Under the pieces are notes generated by a model. That model was not told the origin of the DNA and did not search any database. It was given only the letters and a program-made list of their open reading frames with translations. From Vitreimonas sp. (GTDB lineage Bacteria; Patescibacteriota; Microgenomatia; UBA1400; PJMF01), in contig DASPLQ010000012.1 of assembly GCA_035627515.1 (NCBI GenBank), positions 778,331 to 842,330 of the forward strand: a DNA stretch of 64,000 nt. The letters run 5' to 3'. How positions within the stretch are numbered: the stretch's first letter is position 1; each line of letters starts with the position of its first letter. Shown one piece after another: positions 7,967 through 57,271 of the stretch. Both the position numbers and the translations under genes were made by a program.

Positions 7967-8603
7967 ATGTCTACTTTTTCTACAGTACTTTTTGATTGGG
8001 ATGGCTGTTTAGTTGATTCATTGCCCTTATGGCTGAAGGCATGCAAAGAGTGTTTACCAGCATTGGCTAGGCCTTTAAGCGATTACGAGATTGCACGTCA
8101 CATTATTCCTGAGCTGAAGATGTTGACACAGTACGGTGTCAGTGAAGATGAAGTGGAGAAGTTTGGAAAAGCGGTGATTGAGTCAATTTACAATATTATC
8201 TCAGAAGGCAAATTTCATGCTGGAGCGTTAGAGTTAATTGACACTTTGCAGATACAGAACAAAAATTTTGCTGTAGTAACATCTTCTAATCGCTATTTTG
8301 TAAACCTAATTTTAGATAAGCACCATGCTTCAAATTGCTTTCCTTATTTAGTAGCCCGCGAAGATGTTATTAATCGGAAGCCTCATCCTGAGCCACTTTT
8401 TAAGGCTTTGGATTTATTGAGTGCACATCCTAATGGTAGGTGACTCCAAGGTAGATGTTTTAGCCGCCAAGGCTGCGGGTGTGACAGCAGTGCTTTTTTA
8501 TCCCCCCTGCCATGAGCTGTTCTATGAATGGACAACAATTAAAGAAGCTCAAGCCGACTATGTGATTCGAGATTTTGCTGAGTTAGCTGAGATAATAGGT
8601 TAA
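7967..8603 (+). pseudogene. HAD-family hydrolase (beta-phosphoglucomutase/phosphatase-like) split by a 1-nt frameshift near 8425-8440
   Basis: ORF 7967..8443 carries HAD motif I (LFDWDGCLVDS) and ends ...LLSAHPNGR*. ORF 8421..8603 in the +1 frame begins with motif IV (ILMVGDSKVDVLAAKAAG). A single nucleotide indel would join them. A sequencing error cannot be excluded. Confidence 0.5.
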
Positions 8604-8651
8604 AGACTATCAACGAACTCCATTTAACTATTAAGAGCTCAATCTGCTAGA

Positions 8652-8735
8652 GAAGTTGGCCTGGAGTGTGTTCATGGTGTGCGTAATGTACATTTTGACT
8701 GTAATGACATGTGTCCAGGGGAACTTCTGAAGGAA
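8652..8735 (+). repeat. copy A of a ~76-84 nt conserved intergenic element (copy B at 44211..44291), containing the hairpin CCTGGA...TCCAGG
   Basis: 83% identity to copy B over 76 nt with no indels. Core is CATGTACATTTTGACTGyAATGACwTGTGTCCAGGsGAACTTCTrAAGGAA. Flanked here by GAAGTT/AACTTC inverted repeats. Conservation is at nucleotide level, not reading frame. Confidence 0.55.
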
Positions 8736-9117
8736 AATCTACGGTGAGGAGTGATAGTTGAAAGGCCTTTAAGAAGATTTCTGAAGGGGCGCGAAAAAAA
8801 TGTCTTATCTTTTTGTTTGACAGTGTGTGCTCAAAAAGTGAACTTTCTGGAGGTTGTATGATTTTTGCCATTATTCATACAAACGAAAAAACATGAGCTT
8901 AATAAAAGACTCTCTCCCTCGTAACATTCACCTTACTGAGCAAAGAAAAATCACCCTCACCACTCTTTCTCCCGACCCTCATTTTTACCGTGACATAAAT
9001 AGTGCACGATCGTGGCACAACTATGCCACGGACTTTTAAGAGTGTTCAACGACATACCTCACCACCCTATCATTATCAACCCAGCCAAAAACCTCCACAA
9101 AATGGTACAATGATGAC

Positions 9118-23690: not shown

Positions 23691-23737
23691 ACTTTTACTT
23701 GCTTTATAAAGGTTTTTTCTGAGATACTGATGGGATG
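23691..23737 (+). promoter_or_regulatory. conserved promoter cassette copy 1. Extended -10 (TGaGATACT) ending 6 nt before the ATG predicts a leaderless transcript.
   Basis: ACTTTTaCTTGCTTTaTAaAGGtTTTTTCTGAGATACTGaTGggATG. 35 of 43 positions identical to copy 2 (25634..25680). Confidence 0.45.
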
Positions 23738-25633: not shown

Positions 25634-25680
25634 ATTGTTGCTTGCGTGTCAAAGGGTTTTTCTGAGATACTGGTGAAATG
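25634..25680 (+). promoter_or_regulatory. conserved promoter cassette copy 2 (leaderless-type, extended -10 TGaGATACT 6 nt before the ATG)
   Basis: TTGCTTGCgTgtcAAAGGgTTTTTCTGAGATACTGgTGaaATG. Confidence 0.45.
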
Positions 25681-36346: not shown

Positions 36347-36396
36347 TAAATTCCAAATCTCAAAATTCAAAGTTTGACATTTGGATTTTGGAATTT
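36347..36396 (+). repeat. A/T-rich hairpin repeat, copy X1 (related copy X2 at 57211..57271)
   Basis: AAATTCCAAATCTCAAAATTCAAAG...ATTTGGATTTTGGAATTT. The arms form a ~16-bp interrupted stem. It starts right after the mltG stop codon. Confidence 0.5.
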
Positions 36397-43858: not shown

Positions 43859-43881
43859 AAGTTCTGTAAAAGGAATTCAGA

Positions 43882-43918
43882 AAAGCCCTGGTCCGCCAAC
43901 TGGCGGATGGGGCTTTTT
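43882..43918 (+). terminator. intrinsic terminator after rpoC
   Basis: GCCCtgGTCCGCC-aact-GGCGGAtgGGGC hairpin followed by TTTTT. Confidence 0.7.
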
Positions 43919-43923
43919 GGTAG

Positions 43924-44130
43924 TTAGCGATACTTTTTACCTTGGGATTTGGGTCGCTCAGGATCATACATTGTGGGAGGCACCCCTCTTAATATCGCTA
44001 CTATTCTTCCTCGTCTTCTAATGAAAATGGGTTGTTGCTGAAAGTAGGCAATATGGAGCAACTCGAAGAAGTCATTCCGAGCTTGTGTAGCTGTTACAAA
44101 GATACGGCTGCGGTTGTAAATAGATTTCAT
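43924..44130 (-). CDS. Phd/YefM-family antitoxin-like protein (68 aa), with no cognate toxin gene adjacent
   Basis: N-terminal ~50 aa (VTATQARNDFFELL...QPIFIRRRGRIVAILRGV) fits the Phd/YefM pattern. TTGCAT direct repeats (operator-like) lie just upstream on its strand. Its 3' end overlaps the rpoC terminator. Confidence 0.5.
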   Translation of the reverse strand: MKSIYNRSRIFVTATQARNDFFELLHIAYFQQQPIFIRRRGRIVAILRGVPPTMYDPERPKSQGKKYR

Positions 44131-44210
44131 ATACGTACTTTATAGGAAATTTCTTGCATTAAGCTTGCATACAGCAAACTCTACCTATCTCAGTATCAAC
44201 CTGTAGAAAA

Positions 44211-44291
44211 GTGAACCTGGACACTGTCTATCGTGTGCAACATGTACATTTTGACTGCAATGACTTGTGTCCAGGCGAACTTCTAAAGGAA
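44211..44291 (+). repeat. copy B of the ~76-nt conserved intergenic element (copy A at 8652..8735)
   Basis: Contains a 9-bp stem CCTGGACAC/GTGTCCAGG around the conserved core ATGTACATTTTGACTGCAATGAC. Same orientation as copy A. Confidence 0.55.
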
Positions 44292-44378
44292 GTGGTCAAG
44301 GCATAAAAAAGCAGCTCATCACAAGGTGTAAAACACAACCTGGTATAATACACATTCATTACTCAATAAGTAATAAAT

Positions 44379-44612
44379 ATGTGTAAAGTAGAGCGGGTGA
44401 GACAAGAGTTACTACAGAGGTTAGATGCTGGCCAAAGTCCTGCCAGACTTCATGAGTGGTTAGCTGAGGAATTTAATGCGGCAGCTTTTGAAGATGATGA
44501 TCCCATTGATTGGGAGGCTTACGATGCTTTATTCATGATGTGCCCGTTGCCTCCTACACGCAGTCAATTAGAATTGGAAACTGTCTTGGACGAGACACCT
44601 TTTACGAGGTGA
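44379..44612 (+). CDS. hypothetical acidic protein (77 aa)
   Basis: ORF with a TATAAT-like box ~30 nt upstream. No motif. Confidence 0.3.
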   Translation: MCKVERVRQELLQRLDAGQSPARLHEWLAEEFNAAAFEDDDPIDWEAYDALFMMCPLPPTRSQLELETVLDETPFTR

Positions 44613-44639
44613 CATGTTTTTAACACAATTCTTTCACTA

Positions 44640-44668
44640 TTGGCTAAGAATTCCTCTTATGTTACAAT
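44640..44668 (+). promoter_or_regulatory. sigma70-like promoter for rpsL-rpsG
   Basis: TTGGCT -17 nt- TACAAT, about 45 nt upstream of rpsL. Confidence 0.55.
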
Positions 44669-44714
44669 CAACGCCTGACTAAAAATAGTTTATAAGTATA
44701 TCTGGAAGTCACGA

Positions 44715-45715: not shown

Positions 45716-46528
45716 ATGCCTCCAGTTGAACGAGGTATTCGACTAAACGAAGAAGACTTAGCATTACTGGAACAGCTTTTAGCAGCATCTCTCCCTACGG
45801 CGGTTCTATTTGATTTACCGGCAACTGAAGCGACAAAGGAAGTTCTCACGCAATCAGACGAAGTTGAATCACCTCCAGTAACAGCCGAAGAATATCTGAC
45901 TGAATATCAGCTTCAACAAAATCCCACTAAAGATGAGTTACAAATGGCTTTAGAAAATAGTGGTTTGACAGTAGGGGAAGCTCAGCAGTTATTACATAAA
46001 ACTCGCTGGATTATTCCCTGGGATAACCCCTTGCACCTTGCTGAGGTTTTTCACATCATGATTAATTTCACAGATGGAGCTGAACTGAGTTTAAGAACAG
46101 AGAAGGTTGATCATGCTCTAAGCCTTCGGAAACTTAGAAAAACAGACTTAATTTTATTTAGGCAAGCATTATTACTAATAGGCAATCAAAAGAAAACTTT
46201 ATTATCACGAGATATTCGTAATAACCCTAATCTGCTCGAAGGCGTAACCTTGCGTCGTCTTTTAATGGCACATGGCTATGCCCCAAGGCTAGCTACCCAA
46301 GCTGTAAATGGTTTAGTTCGCCATAACTTCATTAATCCTTTTGAACAAGCGGCTAATGAACAGTCAACTGAGGTTATTGAGATGTTGCGTACAGCTGTTA
46401 ATTTAGAAGACTTTGGAGAAAAAGTTTTCAATCGCAGATCATTCTCAATACCAGGCGTAATTCATCATTTAGGTAACATAGGCTTTGAGGCCTTACATGA
46501 TGTGTTTACTAAATTAGAAAATAAATAA
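45716..46528 (+). CDS. hypothetical protein H1 (270 aa), inserted between rpsG and fusA
   Basis: Starts 40 nt after rpsG with no intervening promoter. No known motif. Confidence 0.45.
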   Translation: MPPVERGIRLNEEDLALLEQLLAASLPTAVLFDLPATEATKEVLTQSDEVESPPVTAEEYLTEYQLQQNPTKDELQMALENSGLTVGEAQQLLHKTRWIIPWDNPLHLAEVFHIMINFTDGAELSLRTEKVDHALSLRKLRKTDLILFRQALLLIGNQKKTLLSRDIRNNPNLLEGVTLRRLLMAHGYAPRLATQAVNGLVRHNFINPFEQAANEQSTEVIEMLRTAVNLEDFGEKVFNRRSFSIPGVIHHLGNIGFEALHDVFTKLENK

Positions 46529-46654
46529 CTCACCCCTTTTCCTGTATTGATTTCGGCGTATAATCACTTTTTGTTACACATCCATGGCGGATGAAAAACG
46601 TAGTAAAAGGGCTGGCTAGAAGGTACTAAATTCCATTTTTAGCCTGGATTTTTT

Positions 46655-47119
46655 ATGGCAGGATTTACAGTAGAACACTCACGAGTAGGGAATGATGCCG
46701 GCAGTTTAACAGCATGGTTATTAAATATGGTTCGAGGGCAAGAAGAAGGTGGTCAATCTGATTCTAATCGTGTTGAGGCTGGAGCCATTGTTTGGCAGTG
46801 GAATCAAAATGGTGCTACTTCCCACATTGACCAAGACCATCTCACTCAGAGTGTTAATATGCTGAAGCACCATGATGACGAGAGATTCCAGGCAGCTTTA
46901 GAGAGTTTCACTGTTATTGCTCCTAGTACCCAAGTAGCAAGTCAAGTAACCTACAGGGAATGCAAACTAATGCTAACTCTTGATGATCAGCGCCAAGTTC
47001 CTCAACAACAAGTTGAAACAGTTTTACAGATGTTAGTTCAAAACAATATTCCTTTTAGTGTAAAGATCGAGGACGCAGTTGATCCTAGAAAAGACGCATT
47101 AGTGATCCGAGTTTATTAA
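46655..47119 (+). CDS. hypothetical protein H2 (154 aa)
   Basis: ORF between H1 and H3. No motif. Confidence 0.4.
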   Translation: MAGFTVEHSRVGNDAGSLTAWLLNMVRGQEEGGQSDSNRVEAGAIVWQWNQNGATSHIDQDHLTQSVNMLKHHDDERFQAALESFTVIAPSTQVASQVTYRECKLMLTLDDQRQVPQQQVETVLQMLVQNNIPFSVKIEDAVDPRKDALVIRVY

Positions 47120-47137
47120 CCTCAAGCAGAGTGCTTT

Positions 47138-47800
47138 ATGACTCCAGAAGATAATCATAAGCATTGGTATGAGTTAACGGTTTATGATTTGTCTGAAAAG
47201 GAGCGCTTTGCACTCCAAAATAGTATTGCTCGAGCCTTATTGCAGTTTGATCTCAAGGTAGGTGTCGCAGAGGGAGAGCTGAAGGCACTGTACTTTGCTA
47301 ACAGACTTAGTATCGAGTTCCCACATTGGGCTTATCAATTAGTGCAAACTGTTCTCGAAAAGCATTTCCCAAATATCACCTATGAAGCGATTAAGATTGC
47401 TGAGCGAGACCCTAGTCACGAGCAAGGGGCTTTAGCGTTAGATATGGTCATGGCACTTGTTGCACGACAGAAATTACTGTCAGTATATGAAGCTCGGCTT
47501 TTAAAAGAGATGATAATCAAAAAAGAATGGGCCACTCATGGGTACATTTTTCCCGAAATTGTAAATGCAATTTTAGCTTTACCAGCTGAGGTAAGTACTA
47601 TCACTGGGTATCAGGCTAAATTACCACGAATCTTAAAAAGGCCAAGTAAAATTAATTACTTTAGAGGTAGTGAAGGTATTACTCCCAAAGAGATGGGAAT
47701 ACTTAAAACTGCCATCGAAAACCTAGTCAATCAACAACAAATTTACTTTTTAAGTTCTAAGATAGATGACGAGTGGATCGAAGACGAGCGGAAAGACTGA
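47138..47800 (+). CDS. hypothetical protein H3 (220 aa)
   Basis: ORF immediately upstream of fusA. No motif. Confidence 0.45.
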   Translation: MTPEDNHKHWYELTVYDLSEKERFALQNSIARALLQFDLKVGVAEGELKALYFANRLSIEFPHWAYQLVQTVLEKHFPNITYEAIKIAERDPSHEQGALALDMVMALVARQKLLSVYEARLLKEMIIKKEWATHGYIFPEIVNAILALPAEVSTITGYQAKLPRILKRPSKINYFRGSEGITPKEMGILKTAIENLVNQQQIYFLSSKIDDEWIEDERKD

Positions 47801-50184: not shown

Positions 50185-50628
50185 ATGGTTATTGAGCAGT
50201 TAAGCAAGCCAGATTTTAGCAATTTCATTAACTATACTATTCAATATTGGGAACTAATTGATAAATTTAATAAAAAAAATGAGAGCTTTGAGGAAGAGGA
50301 TGTGGAGACATTTCTAGGTGTATGTGCGCTATTAATTGAGTTTGCCCGTTTAGATAGAGAAGTGCAGCCGGCGGTAATCAGAATGTTTACCGGTGTGATC
50401 GATGAGACTGAAAGGCCCTCATCATCTAATGCATTAACTGAAGAGCAAAAACGGCAACAGGAAATCTTTCAAGCCTGGTTTGAGACAGAAATTTCATTGG
50501 CATTGTTGGTAGAGAATGCACACACTTTTAAAGAAGCCTTGCGCAAACTTAAAGTTAGTGCCGATCGTCCGATTATGAAAATCTTGCAAAACAGAAAGAG
50601 AACCACTCATGCAAAGCTGGCGAGTTAG
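50185..50628 (+). CDS. hypothetical protein H4 (147 aa), member of a family of small proteins interleaved in the str/S10 region
   Basis: Shares the FINYTIQ and EEDVETFLGVCALLIEF segments with H6 and H7 (FINEIRT / DDELETFFPIIAMIF). Confidence 0.45.
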   Translation: MVIEQLSKPDFSNFINYTIQYWELIDKFNKKNESFEEEDVETFLGVCALLIEFARLDREVQPAVIRMFTGVIDETERPSSSNALTEEQKRQQEIFQAWFETEISLALLVENAHTFKEALRKLKVSADRPIMKILQNRKRTTHAKLAS

Positions 50629-51322
50629 GATGGAGAATGGAAGTAATTATCTGGAGAGAATGGCTCCCGATCAGCTTTCATTGCAGCCTCTTGTTTCATC
50701 ACTGCTGGAGTTAAAAGCTCCTAAGAGGCAGCGGCTGAGGTTGCGTCGTCAGCGCCAGTACTTTGTTTCATATCTTGATAAATTATCTTCACATGAGCTG
50801 CCATCGGCTGAGTTACAAGCAGAGTTAGAGACATTTATTCAATCTACCCATTCACTTTACTTGGAAACACTGACCTTAATTGATAGTAGTTTTGGATCAG
50901 CTACGGAAGCTGAAATAAAAATCAAAAGTGAGCAGCGGAAAAATGGGGAGATTATTACTGTAAGATCAGCTGCAGAGACAAAAAGATTAATTGATCTTGA
51001 GTATTTGTTTTTTTGTTACTCGCGGTGGGCGGCGGTGTTGGTGCGTGAGCGATTTGTGGAGGCACTCCAGAATATCGAAGATGAGCTTACAGTGACCGGG
51101 GCTGTAATTTGTAGTGAGAGCGAGCACGTGGAGGGAGTAGGAGCACACCAGAGTTTTATGGAGATATATATTGAAGTTCCTCTCACTACCCTTAACCAAA
51201 CTTTGGCTATTCTTGAGAAAATAGGTATTACGTACGATCTTTCAACTCTGCAATCCACTGATGGGATAGTAGCCTTAGAAATTTTCAATGAACCCGCTTT
51301 TTCAAGCAGTACTAAGGGATAG
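50609..51322 (+). CDS. hypothetical protein H5 (237 aa)
   Basis: Overlaps H4 by 20 nt. Contains an AELETFIQ segment resembling the family motif. Confidence 0.45.
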   Translation: MQSWRVRMENGSNYLERMAPDQLSLQPLVSSLLELKAPKRQRLRLRRQRQYFVSYLDKLSSHELPSAELQAELETFIQSTHSLYLETLTLIDSSFGSATEAEIKIKSEQRKNGEIITVRSAAETKRLIDLEYLFFCYSRWAAVLVRERFVEALQNIEDELTVTGAVICSESEHVEGVGAHQSFMEIYIEVPLTTLNQTLAILEKIGITYDLSTLQSTDGIVALEIFNEPAFSSSTKG

Positions 51323-56376: not shown

Positions 56377-57210
56377 ATGTTAATTAAACGTAAAGCTACT
56401 AGCGCCGGACGTCGACACCAAGTGTCGGTGGATCGCAGCCACCTTCACAAAGGTGAACCTGAAAAAGGGTTGATGGCTACCGGTCACTTGAAACGACAAG
56501 GTCGCGGCTATAAAGGTCGTATCACTGTCCGTCATCGTGGTGGTGGTGTCAAAAAACGTTTGCGAATTTTGGACTGGAAACGCAATAAGTTCGGCGTACC
56601 AGGCAAAATTGAGCGCTTAGAATATGATCCATTGCGCAGTGCAAACATCGCCTTAGTTATTTATAATGATGGTGAGAAACGCTACATGGTAGCACCTGAT
56701 GGTCTGAATGTTGGTCAAGAAGTGCTCTCAGGTCCCACTGCTGAAGTACGAGTTGGTAATGCTTTACCTTTAAAAAACATCCCTGTCGGAACTCCGATTC
56801 ATAACTTAGAGTTACACGCAGGTAAAGGTGGTCAAATCGTTCGCGGAGCAGGAACAGCAGCTTATATCCAAGCTAAAGAAGGTGCTATGGTGACTGTGCA
56901 GTTGCCTTCTCGAGAATTAAGATTGCTAAATGCCGAGTGTTTCGCTACAATCGGCCAAGTCGGAAATCAAGATCACAAAAACCAAAAAATTGGTAAAGCT
57001 GGCCGCAAGCGCTTAATGGGTATTCGTCCTGGAGTGCGGGGAACTGCACAACATCCAGACAGTCACCCACATGGTGGTGGTGAAGGCCGGAGTGGTATTG
57101 GTCTCAAATATCCCAAGACTCCATGGGGCAAACATGCCTTGGGTACTAAGACACGTAATAAACGCAAGAACAGTAGTAAGTATATTGTGAGAGATAGAAG
57201 AGTTAAGTAA
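56377..57210 (+). CDS. rplB: 50S ribosomal protein L2
   Basis: Conserved L2 motifs (GRNxxGxIT-like region, PGVRGTAQHPDSHPHGGGEG). Confidence 0.95.
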   Translation: MLIKRKATSAGRRHQVSVDRSHLHKGEPEKGLMATGHLKRQGRGYKGRITVRHRGGGVKKRLRILDWKRNKFGVPGKIERLEYDPLRSANIALVIYNDGEKRYMVAPDGLNVGQEVLSGPTAEVRVGNALPLKNIPVGTPIHNLELHAGKGGQIVRGAGTAAYIQAKEGAMVTVQLPSRELRLLNAECFATIGQVGNQDHKNQKIGKAGRKRLMGIRPGVRGTAQHPDSHPHGGGEGRSGIGLKYPKTPWGKHALGTKTRNKRKNSSKYIVRDRRVK

Positions 57211-57271
57211 AATCCAAATCCCAAAATCCAAACGTTAAAATTGGATTTTGAAATTTGAAACTTGGAATTTG
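57211..57271 (+). repeat. A/T-rich hairpin repeat, copy X2 (related to X1 at 36347..36396), in the rplB-rpsS spacer
   Basis: AAAATCCAAATCCCAAAATCCAAACGttaaaaTTGGATTTTGAAATTTGAAACTTGGAATTT, with a perfect 10-bp stem CAAAATCCAA/TTGGATTTTG. Starts right after the rplB stop codon. Confidence 0.5.

Follow-up and report, generated by a model that had tools for sequence, protein, structure and literature searches.

The MITEs known as Correia/NEMIS in Neisseria and RUP in Streptococcus pneumoniae are among the described systems closest to the repeat reported here: in each case a sharp-ended unit of ~100 nt, with inverted arms that are imperfect, is dispersed in intergenic copies, contains no transposase and would give a long hairpin if transcribed. 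The ERIC/IRU and REP/BIME sequences of Enterobacteria and Pseudomonas are likewise intergenic imperfect palindromes, and ERIC, with about 127 nt, is of similar size. Repeats of the ERIC and REP type are often transcribed as part of a longer unit, and mRNA stability is then affected by the hairpin that they form. A third comparison is offered by the QUAD/SIB and LDR loci of E. coli (~100-500 nt), type I toxin-antitoxin loci that first came to attention as repeats between genes and that, as here, occur in a few intergenic copies of about 80% identity with a short open frame in each.

None of these systems is matched in full. Compared with Correia/NEMIS and RUP, the repeat has neither a target-site duplication nor an identified parent IS, its three known copies are ~80% identical, its arms are subterminal and conservation differs between its two halves. 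Its sequence is not similar to ERIC or REP, and the copy number is apparently very low in comparison with the tens to hundreds of those families. A RAYT-associated REP/BIME was rejected on four counts: the unit has 97 nt instead of a 20-40-nt palindrome, the 5' GT[AG]G tetranucleotide is not kept (GTAG in copy B, CTAG in copy A), only 2 copies are present in 64 kb whereas REP/BIME reach high copy number, and no RAYT / Y1-transposase gene occurs in the window; moreover, the host phylum is Patescibacteria. In contrast to QUAD/SIB and LDR, whose frames encode hydrophobic membrane toxins, the peptide here would be hydrophilic and acidic, and we found neither a promoter or terminator for an antisense RNA nor a conserved start codon.

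Copies of the repeat and the gaps that hold them

The features on which the analysis rests are given below by their positions in the window, the whole stretch of 64,000 nt that was analysed.

8639..8735, + strand: copy A of the ~97-nt imperfect-palindromic repeat, with sharp boundaries (blastn/nhmmer limits)
8649..8747, + strand: open frame across copy A, REVGLECVHGVRNVHFDCNDMCPGELLKENLR, then stop
8651..8665: left inverted arm of copy A, AGAAGTT-GG-CCTGGA, pairing with 8714-8728 in the MFE and consensus folds
8677..8735, + strand: 3' portion of copy A, GTGTGC...AAGGAA, where conservation with copy B is higher (88% identity)
8714..8728: TCCAGG-GG-AACTTCT, right inverted arm of this copy, pairing with 8651-8665 in both folds (MFE and consensus)
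43924..44130, - strand: p68, a solitary Phd-family antitoxin-like ORF of 68 aa with its start 66 nt away from the left edge of copy B
44196..44291, + strand: copy B, in the same orientation as copy A (blastn/nhmmer limits)
44211..44306, + strand: ORF of 31 aa with a GTG start, MNLDTVYRVQHVHFDCNDLCPGELLKEVVKA, running across copy B in the frame homologous to that of copy A
44379..44612, + strand: p77, an ORFan of 77 aa whose start is 88 nt past copy B

Two conserved intergenic copies with a hairpin had been recognised in a sequence-only reading of this DNA, and blastn within the window bears this out, aligning A and B as a discrete homologous unit of 97 nt with one 1-nt gap and 80.4% identity (E=1e-19); a repeat search of the window recovered the ungapped pair over 88 nt at 81% identity. 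The 76-nt limits first given to the copies are right as far as they go but short of the full length, as homology reaches ~20 nt further 5'. A 23-nt core occurs exactly 2 times in the window versus 0.01 expected in shuffles, and neither blastn nor an nhmmer --max profile detected a third copy within the 64 kb. Read in register, the identity between A and B is 13-19/20 inside the element and 0-9/20 outside, and a blastn comparison of the flanks of both copies (±1.5 kb) returned the 97-nt HSP as its sole match. With such sharp boundaries and flanks devoid of similarity, the repeat is not part of a larger duplicated segment, an origin that had been considered from the outset. Conservation within the unit is asymmetric, the 3' half being 88% identical between copies and the 5' half about 71% (37/40 positions over 8689-8728, 27/40 over 8649-8688). 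The 3' part of copy A contains a 16-nt run identical in both copies, ATGTACATTTTGACTG, and the palindrome AATGTACATT.

The two copies have no class of neighbouring gene in common. Copy A begins 36 nt past the stop of a HAD-family hydrolase gene and ends 383 nt ahead of a flavodoxin gene, which shares an operon with a 2-oxoacid:ferredoxin oxidoreductase. The HAD identity previously assigned to the upstream gene (7967-8603) is correct, but the gene is not intact: a frameshift near 8421-8443 splits it into a 158-aa N-terminal ORF (7967-8443) and a 60-aa C-terminal ORF (8421-8603), both with HAD Pfam matches, of which NCBI annotates only the 158-aa piece. Either the gene is a pseudogene or the assembly is at fault here. 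A separate assembly of this organism (Logan contig SRR7003767_15665) spans positions 8817-52685 of the window. Its first break coincides exactly with a TTGACA, 82 nt beyond copy A, and its second falls inside tuf; strain variation or a further repeat close to copy A may be responsible.

Copy B is found in the rpoC-rpsL spacer of 856 nt (43859-44714), where it is flanked by two small divergent ORFs, p68 (-) and p77 (+), that are 248 nt apart. The description of the intergenic regions as devoid of features does not hold for this spacer, where rpoC is followed in order by a terminator-like hairpin, p68, the repeat, an extended -10, p77 and a second terminator-like hairpin, with a promoter-like site ahead of rpsL. 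The p68 frame matches Pfam PF02604 (E=0.004), falls just below the cut-off of TIGR01552 (19.4 bits vs 20.8) and has no toxin partner. The extended -10 that precedes p77, as read from the sequence, is TGGTATAAT (44341-44349), and one of the terminator-like hairpins stands at the end of this ORF. Among 5.8 billion proteins the sole match of p77 is itself, and, being an ORFan, it was discarded as a marker for related loci. No remnants of p68 or p77 were found near copy A by tblastn. Both host gaps are unusually long and lie beside decayed or ORFan genes, where selfish DNA persists; the repeat marks two such decaying gaps in a compact genome, one of them in the normally tight rpoC-rpsL junction.

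A third copy and the host genome

A profile built from the two peptides read across the copies and compared with 1.84 billion representative proteins had a single match (E=4e-5), the called 36-aa ORF P0250 (MTSEIAAKVRLGCVQNVRFDCNDVYPGELLKQGWRE), whose exact match was placed on the same 1,409,795-bp contig as the window. This brings the family to at least three copies, the third one being seen through a called ORF, that is, at the protein level, and the repeat appears to be specific to this genome. The concern that no further copies might exist is in this way removed. Outside this genome, no ORF-called copy and no homologue of the core VxFDCNDxxPGELLK was found among the same 1.84 billion representatives. 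Two exact core patterns gave 0 matches in the GTDB species genomes and 0 in the JGI metagenomes, and a third, degenerate pattern gave 0 in the JGI metagenomes. For viral contigs, one core pattern had 0 matches and another had 2, none genuine, both being chance occurrences in high-GC coding sequence. The peptide profile had no relatives among viral sequences either, blastn against plasmid and phage records returned no match, and a search of the literature on palindromic repeats in Patescibacteria retrieved nothing relevant. At the RNA level, the suggested Rfam check came out negative, and the element is a member of no Rfam family: Rfam 15 had no match in the whole window at gathering thresholds and nothing meaningful in the two intergenic regions at E<=10, where the one match to the repeat is the generic long hairpin mir-2154, with 24.5 bits against a gathering score of 70. 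Altogether, the repeat appears as a discrete unit of ~97 nt, present in at least three copies and genome-specific among everything searched.

The public name of the host, Vitreimonas sp., is that of an alphaproteobacterium (proteins HYD35215-HYD35283, locus tags VD999_04065 onward). The nearest retrievable relative (L002) shares 96% identity in S12, 80% in the C-terminus of RpoC and about 75% at the DNA level. Beyond the genome's own NCBI entry, to which S12 is identical, the best S12 and RpoC matches all come from Patescibacteria (Pacebacteria, Woesebacteria, Paceibacterota), and the gene content, with a sortase and compact r-protein operons, fits CPR. Judging from the S12 and RpoC matches, the genome would be a mislabelled CPR (Microgenomates-like) MAG, and the Vitreimonas label looks wrong.

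The repeat is absent from L002, whose rpoC-rpsL spacer (1518-1584) measures 68 nt compared with 856 nt here. The protein collection searched holds no relative closer than this one, and relatives recovered through the flavodoxin, which are 54-57% identical, do not carry the repeat. Another contig (L003) was set aside as a comparison for the orthologous locus once it proved to be unrelated high-GC sequence.

Readings of the repeat as DNA, RNA and peptide

Both copies carry the inverted arms AGAAGTTnnCCTGGA / TCCAGGnnAACTTCT. The CCTGGA/TCCAGG stem pointed out by the sequence-only reading is real, and RNA folding places it, as the inner arms, inside a second stem formed by the outer arms AGAAGTT/AACTTCT; in copy B only, this inner stem is lengthened to 9 bp, CCTGGACAC/GTGTCCAGG. 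Moreover, the two-copy profile matches its own reverse complement (nhmmer, E=8e-6 on copy B), which makes the whole unit an imperfect palindrome.

The reading that we prefer, tentatively and with a confidence somewhat short of even, is that of a lineage-specific, low-copy dispersed miniature palindromic repeat, a MITE/REP/ERIC-like and non-autonomous unit of ~97 nt, presumably mobile and non-coding. This is supported by the dyad symmetry of the whole unit, by the sharp ends without flank homology within ±1.5 kb and by the unrelated contexts of the copies, A after a decaying HAD gene and B between a Phd-like ORF and an ORFan. The contrast in spacer length between this genome, with the repeat, and L002, without it, points the same way, as do the third homologous copy and the lack of any Rfam family, promoter, terminator or significant coding signal. 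On this view, the unit would have spread within a single Patescibacteria genome to at least three intergenic gaps that are otherwise unrelated, with the copying done by recombination or else by a transposase or recombinase whose gene lies elsewhere, and the copies would since have diverged to about 80% identity. Should a copy be transcribed, a long bulged hairpin (about -31 kcal/mol) is expected for the + strand RNA, with a possible incidental effect on the stability or processing of mRNA 3' ends. Among the three options raised at the beginning (ncRNA, operator, and mobile or repeat element), it is the miniature mobile or repeat element that gains from the discrete unit, its terminal arms and the further copy; the ncRNA received no positive support and the operator is weak.

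Regarding the MITE class itself, inverted arms are present, though subterminal (7-12 nt inside the homology limits), and the copies are dispersed and sharp-ended, but no consistent target-site duplication was found at the homology boundaries of copy A or B, and membership is therefore not established. The short recurrences of AATCT and TCAA were rejected as target-site duplications, lying as they do at alignment positions that A and B share by homology. Pfam searches of the 64-kb window revealed neither a transposase or integrase nor a RAYT gene. The empty-site comparison is made with L002 only, which lacks the repeat but is just about 75% identical in DNA. Two further observations stand against this reading: the three known copies are old (about 80% identity), and their 3' half is better conserved than the 5' one (88% vs about 71%). 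Such unequal halves are unexpected for a purely symmetric transposition substrate and hint at a strand-specific function, either of an RNA or of a peptide. CPR repeat and mobile-element biology being poorly catalogued, a genome-specific miniature palindromic repeat would be a small data point; with three known copies and no relatives, it leaves current understanding unchanged and makes a modest addition to a known kind of feature.

A function at the DNA level, as a protein-binding site, was also considered, in the form of an operator or divergent-promoter control region (for instance of a Phd-like antitoxin) or of the core site of a recombinase. Phd-type antitoxins typically autoregulate through palindromic operators, and the repeat does hold the palindromic sub-motifs AATGTACATT and ATGTACATT-N8-AATGACAT; furthermore, copy B stands between divergent small ORFs, one of them Phd-family antitoxin-like with copy B 66 nt upstream of it. 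Copy A, however, adjoins neither an antitoxin nor a divergent gene, so that a Phd/YefM operator at every copy fits B but not A. Moreover, 97 nt of common descent are far more than an operator needs, and no recombinase gene occurs in the window. We regard such a binding site as very unlikely.

More specific DNA sites were examined and rejected. For a Xer/dif site, the match to the E. coli dif sequence is 18/28, compared with a mean maximum of 18.6 in shuffled windows and thus at chance level, and the XerD arm agrees at 4/11 positions. For an integron attC, the polarity of the arms here (5' ...GTT, 3' AAC...) is the reverse of that of the R''/R' boxes. The template and variable repeats of a DGR are excluded by a mismatch spectrum that is not adenine-specific: differences between the copies involve all four bases, 2/18 falling at an A of copy A and 7/18 at an A of copy B, and this pair also fails in that both copies are intergenic and no reverse transcriptase is encoded in the window. 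Finally, the copies cannot be taken for the att sites of an island, given that the 35.5 kb between them include rpoB and rpoC.

The repeat could instead act as a structured RNA of the + strand, either as a family of paralogous sRNAs or as a cis-acting hairpin in 3' or 5' UTRs (a REP/ERIC-like stabiliser or an RNase III site), with the conserved 3' half as the functional part. Both copies are co-oriented with the surrounding + strand genes, and unequal halves fit a strand-specific function. The + strand folds have energies of -30.6 kcal/mol for copy A (z=-2.1) and -31.5 kcal/mol for copy B (z=-2.4), against -20.3 and -30.9 kcal/mol, respectively, for the minus strand, and the z-scores over both strands range from -2.1 to -2.8. 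The RNAalifold consensus comprises 28 pairs on the + strand and 18 on the minus strand. An inner hairpin GUGUGC-loop-GUACAU can form in the + strand RNA alone, because G-U pairs are needed.

The covariation check that had been proposed gave a mixed answer with these two copies. All one-sided changes (6/6) keep their pairing on the + strand through G-U wobbles, yet there are 0 compensatory double changes in the two-sequence alignment. In a less biased comparison, where a single copy supplies the reference structure, copy A breaks 3 pairs of the MFE structure of copy B versus 8.4 under random substitution (P=0.005), whereas with the MFE structure of copy A as the reference 8/9 changed pairs are broken (P=0.48). 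A + strand RNA function stays in consideration on account of the P=0.005 obtained in one direction and of the asymmetric conservation.

Against it, neither copy is preceded by a promoter-like site or followed by a terminator in scans restricted to sigma-70-type consensus sequences and canonical terminators. The TTGACT box reported inside the repeat does exist as a sequence, but its interpretation as a promoter fails, with no -10 partner on either strand and no hit of the scan in either copy. In addition, a terminator-like hairpin stands between rpoC and copy B, the third copy appears, judging from P0250, to lack 9 nt of the 5' arm of the inner hairpin, and the Rfam searches described above gave no family. 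On balance, a dedicated RNA function seems to us quite improbable.

The asymmetry could also come from a peptide. According to this explanation, which we consider unlikely, the repeat would be a family of protein-coding genes of ~22-36 aa with the core V-[HR]-F-D-C-N-D-x-[CY]-P-G-E-L-L-K, and the palindrome in the DNA would be incidental or regulatory. The sequence-only reading had looked at the minus-strand frame alone, and it missed one frame of the + strand that is open across the whole repeat in A and B and ends in a stop 4-5 codons past ELLKE in each (in copy B the full frame reads RKVNLDTVYRVQHVHFDCNDLCPGELLKEVVKA, then stop). P0250, which begins with ATG, is read in the same frame, has lost 3 codons without a shift of that frame and stops at the equivalent position. 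The substitutions between A and B are distributed 7/3/7 by codon position and leave 5 synonymous codons versus a null mean of 2.5 (P=0.09), and in the conserved half 3/7 changes are synonymous third-position ones. Consequently, the claim that conservation at the nucleotide level means a non-coding element is only partly right: none of the three known copies interrupts the + strand frame, and the P value stands at 0.09.

This synonymous excess is nevertheless a trend and not significant, and a minus-strand frame is open in both copies too. No start codon is common to the copies, as A has only an internal GTG, the sole canonical start in its frame (8679), and B a GTG at either 44211 or 44235; the ATG of P0250 precedes the conserved block by 7 codons, and the segment with the internal GTG is missing from this ORF. 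Since P0250 could be found only because it is open and in frame, it does not count as independent evidence for coding. Conservation does not extend to the second Cys; the representative proteins include no homologue from outside the genome, and Pfam, NCBIfam and PHROG gave no match; and the ORF at copy B was called neither by the NCBI annotation nor by the Logan gene calls. The missing Shine-Dalgarno sequence, on the other hand, is uninformative, because only 11/41 genes in the window have one.

A broader proposal, possible in our view though doubtful, is that the repeat would be a functional lineage-restricted family of a Microgenomates-group CPR bacterium, consisting of at least three paralogous structured sRNAs with an active 3' half or of acidic micro-proteins of ~30 aa sharing the VxFDCNDxxPGELLK core. 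Very few sRNA or micro-protein families are known in CPR bacteria, and the repeat, if it proved to be one, would join that small number.

Other features of the window

The str operon of this genome is interrupted by five ORFs without Pfam, NCBIfam or PHROG match (45716-47800 and 50185-51322), three of them between rpsG and fusA (270, 154 and 220 aa) and two between fusA and tuf (147 and 237 aa). Likewise, L002 has ORFs of no assigned family after rpsG.

Two other repeats were noticed in the window. A 43-nt direct repeat, 79% identical between 23695-23737 and 25638-25680, lies directly upstream of the starts of two adjacent ORFs of ~610-630 aa without significant Pfam match; it looks like a duplicated upstream or start region, which would fit a tandem gene duplication. 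The second is a 34-nt inverted repeat pair (36363-36396 and 57216-57249), 82% complementary and rich in AAATCCAAA-like motifs. One of its arms is found just upstream of rpoB, and the other, between an ORF ending at 57210 and one starting at 57248, occupies a short gap in the gene cluster downstream of tuf.
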